In this document: in pieces, positions 29,801 to 35,800 of the stretch
Layout of the letters: each line of letters opens with the position of its first letter
Position numbering within the stretch: position 1 is the first letter of the stretch
NCBI RefSeq assembly: GCF_048403405.1
Contig: NZ_CP183129.1
DNA from: Escherichia coli
GTDB taxonomy: Bacteria; Pseudomonadota; Gammaproteobacteria; Enterobacterales; Enterobacteriaceae
Length of the DNA stretch: 64,000 nucleotides
Reading direction: 5' to 3' (one strand)
Program-made: the position numbers

Positions 29801-32800
29801 GCCGGTTGCCCGCCGGGTCCGTGGCATACGGGATGCGGATGTCCAGGTCCGGTGCGAGGGTGCGTACACTCGCCAGCCTGCCCGTGGCACTGTAGCCGTA
29901 TTCCCGCGTCTGTCGCGGGCCGCTGATGCGCACAAGGTCGCCGTTGTCATTCCACCCGTAGTCACGGTCATACACCAGGCTGTTCAGGTGCTGGCTCTGT
30001 AACTGGCCTGCAGGGGTGTATGTGCTGGTCAGTTCGTATGCGGCATTACTGCCTGCCATGCTGCCAAAGCTGCGCACCGTTTCTCTGTGCAGGCGGTCGC
30101 GCGCGTACTCCAGCAGCGGCGTGTCGCCCAGCTTCATGCCCGCCAGATAACCGCTACCGTAGGTCAGCCACTCCACCGGCGGCAGGCTGTCCGGCGTGAC
30201 GCGGTTTGCCAGCCCCTGTTCGTTGTATGCCTGTTTCGTCTCATGCTGCCACAGCAGTTCCCCCGTCTCCGGGTTCTCCACCGTCTGGCGCTCCCCGGTC
30301 AGACGGCCCTTATCGTCATAGCCATAGTGGACGGCAACACGGTGGCCTTCGCTCAGGTGGCTGATTTCTCTCAGCCAGCCGTGGCCATCATACCGCCACT
30401 GTTCTGCCGGTTCGCCGTTCACCGTGCGGTGAGTGATACGGTCCGATTCGTCGTAGTGCCAGAGGGTGACAAGCCCCTCATCTTCACTCTGCGTGAGTTT
30501 TCCGGTCAGGTCATAGTGGTAACGTTGCGTCCGCCCGTCAAAGCCGCGCTGCTGTACCAGCCGGTCCAGCGCATCGTAGCTGAAGTCGCTGTGACTGCCG
30601 TTCTCGTTGGTCAGGCTGATGACACGTCCTGCCGCGTCATACTCCATACTGCGCGTCAGCCCGCCCTGTGTGGTGCTGACCGCCTTTCCCCACGCATCGT
30701 ACTGTGTCTCGCTCCGGTTGCCGTCCGGGGTGATAACGGCAGTCAGGTCGCCTGCGGCGTTGTATTCATACCGCGTTTCACGGCCCTGTGCGTCTTTCAC
30801 CGAGGTTAACCGGCCACGGTTGTCATAGCGGCGGTAACGGCTGATACCTTCCTCGCGGTGAACCGCCGTCATCTGGCCGAAGCGGTCGTATTCATAACGG
30901 GTCTGGTAGCCCGAGCAGTCAGTGAACGCCAGCAACTGCCCGTAGCGGCTCCACGTCATCTGCCGGGTGCTGCCCGTCGCATCCGTTGTCGTCGCCGGTA
31001 ACTCACTGTGCGCGTCATCGTAGCGGTAGCGTACTGTCTCCCCGCTGCGCGATGTCTCCGATACCAGCCTGTCCCGCTCATCATACGCCCGGCGGCTCTC
31101 CAGCCCGTCCGGGTACACCACCGCCGTCAGCCGGTTCCCGTCGTTATAGTAAAATTTCGTCTCCCGCCCGTCCGGCGTGGTGATGTCCGTGATGTCGCCT
31201 GACACCACATTCAGACCGTACTCTGTCCGCCGTCCCGCCGCGTCCGTCTGCGCCGTGAGCCTTCCTGCCGCGTCATACCCGCTGTGCGTGACGCTGCCGT
31301 CCGCCAGTTCTTTTTTCACCACCCGCTTCAGCCCGGCCCCGCCTTCTGTATGCAGCACCTCTCGCCGGTTCAGGCTGTCGGTGACGGTGATGCGGTCCTG
31401 CTCATACTGGTAGCGGTAACTCAGGCCTGCCGGGTTCAGCTGCTCCACCACCCGCCCCGCATCGTCGTAGCGGTAGCGCATCTCCGGCCTTCCCGCATAA
31501 CGGTGCCCCACCATCCGGCCCGGGTGCTGCGGGTCATACGTGAAAGCGCGCACCTGTGTCCCGCTGCGGTCATATACCGCCAGCAGTTCACCGGCTTCCG
31601 TATACGTGTACCGCACCAGTGGCGCACCGGGCAGATTCTCCGGGTATGCCGGGTCGTGCATCAGCCACACCGCCGAAAGGCGGATACCCCTGTCGGGGCC
31701 GTATTCCGTACCGGGCAGTGTGTCGGGGAACGCTGAGGCTGAGAGAGGGCGGGAACGGTCAGAAGAAGATAGCGAAGAGGTGCGGGCCTCTTCCGCACGC
31801 TGCGCCTGTGTGGTCAGCACCAGACGGAACTCCCGCCCGGCACCGTCCGTCACGCCGGTGATTTCCCCGGCCAGGTCACCGGCGGCCTCACGCCGGTACG
31901 TCAGCGTCTGCCCGAAGCGGTCCGCCAGCCCGGTAAGCACCCGGTACGGCGGCAGCGGCGCTGGCAGTACGTCCTCAGTGCCCGGCACCCGCTCTGACCA
32001 CCCCAGTATCCACCACGGTCCCTGTGCGCTGTTGGTCGCCAGGTAAAGATGCGGGCTTAACCGGATATCCGGCGGCAGCGACGCCCACAGCCGTGCCAGC
32101 GTGTGGCCGTCCGGCTGCGCTGCCTTACCACCGCGAACCAGCCACATTGACTCGCTGCGGCTGTACACCGCCCCCCCCGGCAGCAGCGGCTCAAAGTGAA
32201 TGCTCCGTCCGCCGTTGTCGTTGAGTACCAGTGCATCATCGCGTATCTGTAAGCGGATATCAGAAGGCGCTTTCCAGCCGGGGCCAAAAATCCCCACCGG
32301 CGCAGGCGTCTTCGTCCGGTAGCTGCTGTAGGTGCGGGAGAGAATGAACGACAGCGGGCCGGGCAGCGCAAGGTCCGTCTCGCCGGGCAGCACCTTCGCC
32401 CCCAGCAGCGGATTTACCGGGTTGCCCGAAGTCATCCTGCCCGGACACACCGAGCACGCCACGCCGGTGGGCGCGCCAATTCTTACACCTGCCGAACCCT
32501 GGACAATGGGACCGCCATACTGAGTCATATCTCCCTGACGCGCCGCTGGTTTTCCGCTCATATAAAGTGCCCTTTTAGTTATTGTTCATATCCCTGTGTT
32601 AGCAACAAAAAAATAAAATGACACACAAGACCAGCTAATGTATTTATATATTTTTCACATAAACTTAATTGTTCTCAATCAACAACAACTGTTATTACAG
32701 GTCACTTTCAATATTTTATTAAACTAACATTTTTAGCACAGATGAATTCATCATCAACAAATTCACTATATGGATAATATCCATTCAACGCATATGGTTT

Positions 32801-35800
32801 ATGATTTTATTAGTCTGAGTTATTTTTGTAGGGCTATATTTAAAATTATTAAACTCCACCGATTCAGATTAATATCAGCAATAGAAAGATAGGAAATCAC
32901 CAATTCAATAACATCATCAATGAAACATATTGTAGAATTAATTTAAACAAGGCGTTCCATTCAACCAGAACGCCCCTTATTTACTCTCATCACCCCGCAA
33001 ACTGCCTGAACAGCGCCTTACCCTTAACCAGCCGCGCGCCCAGCCAGCCGCCGAAAAGCGACAGCAGCAGTGCACCGCTGCACGGCAGCACAATCCACAA
33101 TCGCCAGTCTGGCTCCCACGGGAAATCAAACACTTTCGCCTGCAACACTGCCAGCGCCGTTTCCGCACCAATTGCGGCCACCAGGCCAGAAACAAACCCG
33201 AGCATGGCGAACTCACACCACAACGTGGTACGCAGCAGTTTTTTCCCCGCACCGAGTGTGCGCCACACCACCAGCTCCTGATGACGCTGACGCATTCCCA
33301 CCTGCACCTGTGCCAGCAACAGCAACATACCGCAGGCGGTGACCAGCACCACCATCACCTCCAGCGCCCGACTTACCTGCTCCAGCACCTGACCGACCTG
33401 TTTTAAAATCGCGCCAATGTCTAACAGGCTAATGGTAGGGAACTGGCGGTTGAGTTGCGTCAACATGCCGTTGCCATTCTCCCAGCGGAAACTGGTAAGC
33501 CAGCTCTGCGGTTGCCCGTCTAATGCCCCTTCTGGGAAAATAAAATAGAAATTAGGCCGCAGACTTTCCCAGTCCACTTTGCGCAGGCTGGTCACTTTAG
33601 CGCGGAACTCCTGGGTATCGCCCATAAAGGTGACTGTATCGCCGAGGCCAACGTTTAAGCGTTTCGCCAGCCCCTCTTCCATTGACACTTCATCGGCTTT
33701 TGGCGGCCAGTTACCGGCGACAATCGGATTATGATCGGGCCGCGTATTTTGCCAGGTAAGATTGAGTTCGCGGTTAAGCGCCTCATCTTCATTGCCTTCT
33801 GTCGGCTTGTCGTTAATCGCCGTCAGTCGCGCCCGCACCACCGGATAAAATGATTCCGGGACTATCTGATGTTCCGCGAGGAACGTTTTTAGCGGCGTAA
33901 CCTGTTCTGTGGCGATGTTGATTAAAAAGTAGTTCGGGCTTTCTGGCGGTAGCTGCTGTTGCCAGCGGTCGAGCAGATCGCCACGCAGCACCAGCAGCAG
34001 TGCCAACAGCATAAAGGAGAGCGAAAATGCCGAAAGCTGGCTTAACGTTGACCACGGCTGACGTAACAGGCGGCTAACCGCCAGGCGCAGAGGTAGCGAT
34101 TTCAGCGTCATGCGGCGAAGTACATTCAGCAGCATCCAGCCCAGCACACCGCACAGCAAAGCCAGTACTACCGCGCCCGCCAGCACCGCCCAGAGCAGCA
34201 TACTGCCCCCCATTAATCCGGCGAGCAGCAGCACAACCACCACACTGACAATCGGCAGATAAAACTTGAGCGGCCAGACGTTCGCGACCACATCATTACG
34301 TAATACGCGTAAAGGCTGCGTTGCCAGCAACAAGCGGTACGGTCGTAGCCCCACCAGCAGCGAGATGACCGTCATGGTGCCCAGCGCCCATAGCCACGGC
34401 CAGAGGCTGGCAGGCGGTAGTGCAGCAGGCAAAACGGGCTTGAGCAGCACCATCAACACGTTTTCGAACAACAGGCCTATCGCCCCGCCGGTAACGGCTG
34501 AAAGCGTCAGCACCATCAACCACTGACCGACGATTAGCTTACGCAGTTGCGCTCGCCCTGCCCCCAGCGTTTTGAGGATCGCCACAAGATCGTAGCGACT
34601 GCGACAGTAATGATTCATCGCCACCGCCACCGCTGCCACTGCCAGCAGCAAGGTCAGAAGCGCCGAAAGCAGCAGGAACTGTTGCGAGCGTTCCATCGAG
34701 CGCCCCAGCGCGCCTTCGTCCTGTTCCAGACCGTACCAGCGTTGTTCGGGTTTAAGCTGAGGTAACAACCATTTCTCATAGCTGTCGAGCTGGTTCTCGT
34801 TGCCGCCGAATTTATAGCGCCAGGTGACCCGACTCCCCGGCTGCACGGCTCCGGTTTTATCGACATCCGCCAGATTCATCATCAGACGCGGAGCCATCTG
34901 GAAGGGGTTAAAACCGGAATCCGGTTCCTGAATCACTTCTCCGGCAATCCGCAAGGTGGCATCGCCCACGTCAATGGTGTCGCCCGTTTTTAGGTTAAGC
35001 AGTGCCATCAGGCGTGGGGCCAGCAATACGCTGCCCGCCTGCGGTTTCAGGCCAGGGGGATTAGTTTGCAGATCGCCATACATCGGGTAGATATCATCCA
35101 CCGCTTTGACGTTCGCCAGCTGCGGTGTGTCGCCTGCAAATGTCATGGTGGCGAAAGTCAGCTGCTTGCCGACTTTCAGGCCGCGCTTTTGCGCTTCCTC
35201 CAGCCACGCTGGCGGCACTTCGCGCGAACTGCGCAACGCCCGATCGCCCGCCATAAACTCCCGGCTTTGTTGGCTTAAGCCCTTCTCCATGCGATCGCTG
35301 ATATTGCCCAGCGCCAGCACGCAGGCCACCGCCAGGCTTAGCGCCAGCCAGACAATTAATAGCGACGGCGAACGCCATTCGCGCCAGAACCAACGTGCAA
35401 TCATGCTTCCTCCTGCAACTGCCCGTTCACCAGCCGTAAGCAGCGGTCGCAGCGTGCCGCCAGTTGCAGGTCGTGAGTCACCATAATCAACGTGGTGCCA
35501 TGTTCACGGTTGAGGGAAAACAGCAGGTCGGCAATTTTATCGCCCGTCTGGCGGTCAAGGTTGCCGGTGGGTTCGTCGGCAAACAGCACATCAGGTCGAC
35601 CGTTAAAGGCTCGTGCCAGCGCCACTCGTTGCTGTTCACCGCCGGAAAGCTGTGCCGGAAGATGATCCAGACGTTTACCCAGCCCTAACTGTTCGAGCAA
35701 CGCTTTCGCCCCGTTACGACTTTCTGCGCTACTCTCACCACGCAGCAGCGCCGGAAGCTCGACGTTTTCCAGCGCGTTAAGGGTAGGAATTAACATAAAT

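Follow-up and report, generated by a model that had tools for sequence, protein, structure and literature searches.

The rhsD-type toxin gene of Escherichia coli contig NZ_CP183129.1 (assembly GCF_048403405.1) is preceded by a strongly AT-rich spacer, which raises the question of what this DNA is and whether it keeps the gene silent. We analysed 64 kb of the contig, called here the window. The spacer runs from the stop codon of ybbP to the start codon of rhsD, both genes lying on the minus strand, and is exactly 428 bp long; we refer to it as the leader (coordinates in Table 1). The leader is the 5′ arm of an RhsD island, and we consider it likely that RNA polymerase binds there while polymerisation of H-NS keeps the promoters unproductive and the toxin gene silent.

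A first-pass annotation had described the spacer as far more AT-rich than its flanks and devoid of open reading frames (ORFs), and both descriptions hold. The GC content of the leader is 28.5%, against 64.3% in the rhs core, 58.1% in ybbP, and 54.9% in the whole window, and its AT content is thus far above that of the host. The sliding-window computation of GC that the annotation had proposed placed the lowest 428-bp stretch of the 64 kb at 32558, and the stretches equally AT-rich amount to 0.013%. The longest ORF of the spacer encodes 40 amino acids (aa) (32770..32892, plus strand) and is non-coding, because it bears a frameshifting indel in two of the ten strains compared and holds 5 of the 10 leader substitutions. 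In a 21-aa ORF starting with ATG the variation is non-synonymous only, and no small ORF of the spacer is conserved as coding. Furthermore, RefSeq places no feature inside the spacer in any of the genomes listed, and an Rfam scan of 31500..34000 returned no match at E ≤ 1.

The distribution of the leader among E. coli genomes is that of accessory DNA. Of 5426 complete E. coli genomes, 2866 carry the entire region, and most of the remaining ones align with ybbP alone, starting at about 32983. Leader and rhsD are missing together from about 47% of the complete genomes, in which repetitive extragenic palindromic (REP) elements take the site, and this absence argues that the leader DNA is foreign, i.e., horizontally acquired. 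In the empty-site strains A25 and LD67-1, a spacer with REP elements separates ybbP from mnmH, and their homology with the window breaks at 32983/32984 and at 26887/26892. The island edge is placed 6 nucleotides (nt) past the ybbP stop codon, and by this comparison the leader can be assigned to the ybbP-proximal (5′) arm of the RhsD island. It is single-copy, with at least 98.3% identity in all the full-length matches listed, and an exact leader 22-mer gave 0 matches when one genome per species was scanned. No leader homologue was found upstream of rhs genes of other species and genera that share the first 12 codons, the upstream DNA there being unrelated; in such rhs genes (E. albertii, Pseudocitrobacter, Lelliottia, Paracidovorax, and others) the AT-rich upstream part extends over at most 100-200 bp. 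The leader belongs to the island and is specific to E. coli rhsD.

Some minor observations concern the same site. A plasmid-borne leader was considered and rejected, the sole matches being chromosome-like or misfiled records. In A25, which has no rhsD, the mnmH-ybbP spacer (3631..3786 of L003) contains REP elements and an annotated DinQ-like type I toxin gene. Two short metagenome-assembled contigs labelled ‘Collinsella sp.’ (L012 and L013) carry an enterobacterial-type rhs start with 600 bp of 31-35% GC DNA upstream, and they are probably binning contamination from Enterobacteriaceae.

The leader is 99% identical to the ybbP-rhsD spacer of K-12 MG1655 (NC_000913.3, 522831-523260), from which it differs by four substitutions and by a run of seven Ts instead of nine. 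The K-12 spacer, ybbP(+)/rhsD(+), is one of the 78 ‘promoter islands’ of Panyukov and Ozoline (2013; PMC3661553, Table 1). There it has the H-NS code ‘A’, meaning that it was bound in all the chromatin immunoprecipitation-microarray (ChIP-chip) studies compared, and four predictors flag it as foreign. Promoter islands, taken as a class, are bound by RNA polymerase and form open complexes, and almost no full-length RNA is made from them (PMC3661553). The present leader shares with that island the locus, the AT-richness, the density of promoter-like sites, and the foreign flag; of the 430 bp of the K-12 spacer, the published island takes in 304. Moreover, Shimada et al. (2014; PMC3946193, Table 3) assigned to the ybbP>rhsD spacer sites for both the RpoD holoenzyme and H-NS, recovered by genomic SELEX (systematic evolution of ligands by exponential enrichment), and a predicted constitutive RpoD promoter, TTAATA-17-TGTAAT, overlapping the H-NS site. 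The promoter is unchanged in the present strain; the published binding is in vitro, and the promoter is a prediction, in the paper as well as here.

The comparison with H-NS ChIP data proposed by the first-pass annotation thus came out in favour of binding, and its reading of the spacer as H-NS-silenced DNA is right in substance and already in the literature for exactly this locus. Foreign origin and published K-12 binding sustain that reading, whereas the route through curved A-tracts fails, as described below, and the proposed need for an anti-silencing signal is speculative. Our result recovers, at the RhsD edge, a promoter island already published as H-NS-bound and is, in this respect, ordinary rather than new. 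Its by-products are a precise island boundary, the membership of the leader in the island and its specificity to E. coli rhsD, and a correction as to what AT-richness means here.

The elements of the leader suggest how such silencing could work. Read along the minus strand, a hairpin comes first (11 pairs, free energy −18.5 kcal/mol, z = −2.4, with a weak tail, GUUUAAAUU). It sits within the island, past the homology break at 32983, and is probably the ybbAP terminator, which would then be supplied by island DNA. The next ~350 bp offer sigma-70 promoter-like hexamer pairs about 6-7 times denser than elsewhere, because this DNA is so AT-rich, and among them is TTAATA-17-TGTAAT, with its predicted −10 element ending 133 nt upstream of the ATG. 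In a relaxed scan the leader had 18 promoter-like sites, 12 of them sense and 6 antisense, where 428 bp of the window have 2.7 ± 2.9; this density ranks within the window's top 0.4% and agrees with the promoter-island label. Last would come a transcribed leader of roughly 90-130 nt with a poly-U run and a Shine-Dalgarno sequence. RNA polymerase could bind this DNA unaided, H-NS would polymerise over the AT-rich tract, and the rhsD promoter or promoters would be occupied but unproductive; consequently, the toxin gene would be silent in ordinary growth. We infer that H-NS is most likely the cause of this silence and that some signal relieves it. Composition, accessory status, K-12 identity, promoter-like density, and the lack of coding or known-RNA signal come from our own analysis; the K-12 papers supply the binding of H-NS in vivo and in vitro, that of RNA polymerase, and the low transcript output of promoter islands as a class.

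A number of results weigh against silencing by H-NS at this leader. The leader has 9 runs of at least four A or T, while shuffles of the same composition have 8.9 ± 2.6, and AA/TT dinucleotides show no 10-11 bp periodicity in it (P = 0.52). According to a rough wedge model, in which a phased-A6 control bent strongly as expected, the leader is less bent than 98% of its shuffled versions and does not stand out within the window. The motif TCGATAAATT, which we take to be the H-NS high-affinity consensus, has one match with two mismatches in the leader and none better. The H-NS ChIP and SELEX data come from K-12, not from the present strain. Finally, the literature that could be read yielded no rhsD mRNA or reporter data in an hns mutant, and no experimentally mapped rhsD transcription start was found.

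With no excess of A/T tracts, no phasing, and no predicted curvature, the earlier description of the tracts as typical of curved DNA has to be given up. Intrinsic curvature and a high-affinity nucleation motif are frequent but not obligatory in H-NS-bound DNA, and what the sequence offers H-NS here is plain AT-richness, not curvature or A-tract phasing.

The level of conservation bears on several of the alternatives. Across the ten strains, 10 of the 428 leader sites segregate (nucleotide diversity, pi, 0.0074), against 52 of 280 4-fold degenerate sites in ybbP (pi ~0.069) and 55 of 270 in the 5′ part of rhs (pi ~0.068). Polymorphisms are ~9-fold fewer in the leader than at the neighbouring 4-fold sites (leader versus ybbP: Fisher P = 8e-14), and the gap persists for A/T sites alone (7/306 versus 17/71, P = 1e-8). 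Between the present strain and K-12, the shared intergenic regions diverge by 1.0% (24/2370), the 4-fold sites by 8.5% (430/5069), and the leader by 0.93%. A claim of exceptional leader conservation was dropped on these figures: since the other shared spacers are equally conserved, the conservation of the leader is ordinary for a regulatory spacer, and it is under constraint as other regulatory spacers are. As an observation in its own right, the ratio of spacer to 4-fold divergence from K-12 is strikingly low across the entire locus.

A divergence typical of spacers would also be expected of an ordinary promoter and 5′ untranslated region (UTR), in which AT-richness has no silencing role, rhsD is quiet for want of a specific activator, and H-NS binding is incidental. 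We hold this explanation to be unlikely. In its favour, two short spacers of the window, allW/allB (28.8% GC) and glxR/allW (30.4% GC), are nearly as AT-rich, and neither curvature nor a nucleation motif marks the leader. Sites for the activator BglJ-RcsB are predicted in the literature at rhsA and rhsB, which also speaks for it; the prediction concerns these two genes only, not the rhsD leader, and an RcsB-type half-site, wwTTCykA, has one match in the leader, at chance level (P = 0.48). However, no other spacer of the window matches the leader in combined length and composition. The K-12 spacer is occupied by H-NS in every ChIP-chip study compared (PMC3661553) as well as in SELEX (PMC3946193), and the island class binds RNA polymerase with almost no transcript (PMC3661553).

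It is less probable still, and in our view improbable, that the leader holds a dedicated switch timing the production of the orphan Rhs toxin, for example a site for an anti-silencer or expression tuned by slippage. Such a switch is conceivable because the leader has spacer-level conservation, a poly-T run of T7 to T10 in its transcribed part, and two invariant palindromes. The run is T7 here and in one other of the ten strains, and T8 or T9 in the other eight, and PMC11541549 reports slippage from T9 to T10 at this site in K-12 during laboratory evolution. In the literature rhsD has no known anti-silencer, our analysis gave no evidence of one, and the leader sequence alone makes the question of how an orphan rhs toxin is switched on no more testable.

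The two palindromes are perfect, TGGATA-T-TATCCA at 32771..32783 and GATGAATTCATC at 32741..32752, and are located 20-60 bp away from the predicted −35 element, on its upstream side. Both are invariant in the ten strains; about 0.6 would be expected by chance, on a rough estimate that was not computed, and they may be without meaning.

We give very little credence to the idea that the leader hides a small RNA, a small protein, or a cis-acting RNA switch that has escaped annotation. Conservation over the entire spacer length and the two short palindromes upstream of the predicted promoter would suit it, but Rfam gave no match at the threshold used, the predicted 5′ UTR does not fold better than its shuffles (z = +0.67), the 40-aa ORF is frameshifted in two strains, and the 21-aa ORF varies in non-synonymous positions only. 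Just as implausible is a functionless relic, either a decayed gene that once preceded rhs or junk brought in with the island: the lack of ORF, Rfam match, and annotation and the unrelated upstream DNA of other-genus rhs genes that share the N-terminus would agree with it, but neutral DNA should vary like synonymous sites, and the leader falls far below those of ybbP and rhs.

Silencing by H-NS would place the leader beside another rhs locus. The Salmonella pathogenicity island 6 (SPI-6), with its type VI secretion system (T6SS) and rhs genes, is likewise an AT-rich foreign locus with an Rhs toxin and, as cited in PMC7043789, is reported to be H-NS-silenced. According to that source, the whole T6SS island is silenced there and derepression was measured in hns-depleted cells, whereas rhsD here is an orphan, without adjacent vgrG or T6SS genes, and its silencing is deduced. 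The leaders of K-12 rhsA, rhsB, and rhsC are also AT-rich spacers before GC-rich rhs cores, but their length is half that of the rhsD leader (202-242 bp) and they are less AT-rich, with 35-37% GC. Paralogy of the rhsD leader with them was rejected, as they are not homologous to it except for one 17-nt match in rhsC.

Table 1. Features of the ybbP-rhsD locus (window coordinates)
Feature	Position	Strand	Basis and remarks
AT-rich leader (28.5% GC)	32562..32989	-	Composition, no ORF, 99% K-12 identity, literature; counterpart of the promoter island ybbP/rhsD published for K-12
rhsD-type RHS toxin gene, 1400 aa	28359..32561	-	ORF; ATG at 32561..32559; downstream of the leader
ybbP (ABC transporter permease), core-genome gene	32990..35404	-	ORF; stop codon 32990..32992 borders the leader
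Accessory RhsD island, ~6.1 kb	26890..32983	.	Bounds set against empty-site strains A25 and LD67-1
Terminator-like hairpin, GGGGCGTTCTGG..GGAACGCCTT, then GTTTAAATT	32949..32976	-	Scan, folding; 13 nt past the ybbP stop codon
Predicted sigma-70 promoter, TTAATA-17-TGTAAT	32694..32722	-	Single exact match in the window; rhsD-operon assignment of Shimada et al. (PMC3946193, Table 3)
Second promoter-like site, TTGAGA-17-AAAAAT	32650..32678	-	Scan; −10 end 89 nt upstream of the ATG
Poly-T run, T7	32607..32613	-	46-52 nt upstream of the ATG
Shine-Dalgarno-like AAAGGG	32570..32575	-	Sequence inspection; 8-13 nt upstream of the rhsD ATG

The locus is 100% identical to that of E. coli TUM14771, where RefSeq names ybbP and an ‘RHS element core protein’ and leaves the space separating the two genes unannotated. 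Pfam recognised in the rhsD-type protein DUF6531, eight RHS_repeat matches, and the RHS core domain, and its C-terminus is variable. The architecture fits that of an Rhs element, with a GC-rich core (64% GC) and an AT-rich region at 28.1-28.7 kb (30-37% GC). The latter belongs to a second AT-rich block, 28070..28750, which comprises the 3′ tip of rhs and a downstream 163-aa ORF (27887..28378) with no Pfam match. Within this block, near 28296, the density of promoter-like sites reaches its peak for the window, 23 per 428 bp.

Farther upstream on the minus strand, the window departs from K-12 in two places. Between ybbJ and cueR, which abut in K-12, there are about 3 kb missing from that strain (~41420..44430), with genes for an autotransporter adhesin of the YadA family and for three hypothetical proteins and including a very AT-rich part (29.7% GC around 41863..41999). 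From ~44900 to 64000, the K-12 ybaT-glsA-copA neighbourhood is replaced by a type I secretion system (HlyD adaptor and permease/ATPase) and by a giant frameshifted gene of more than 20 kb, ‘siiEA’, for a BapA-related adhesin.

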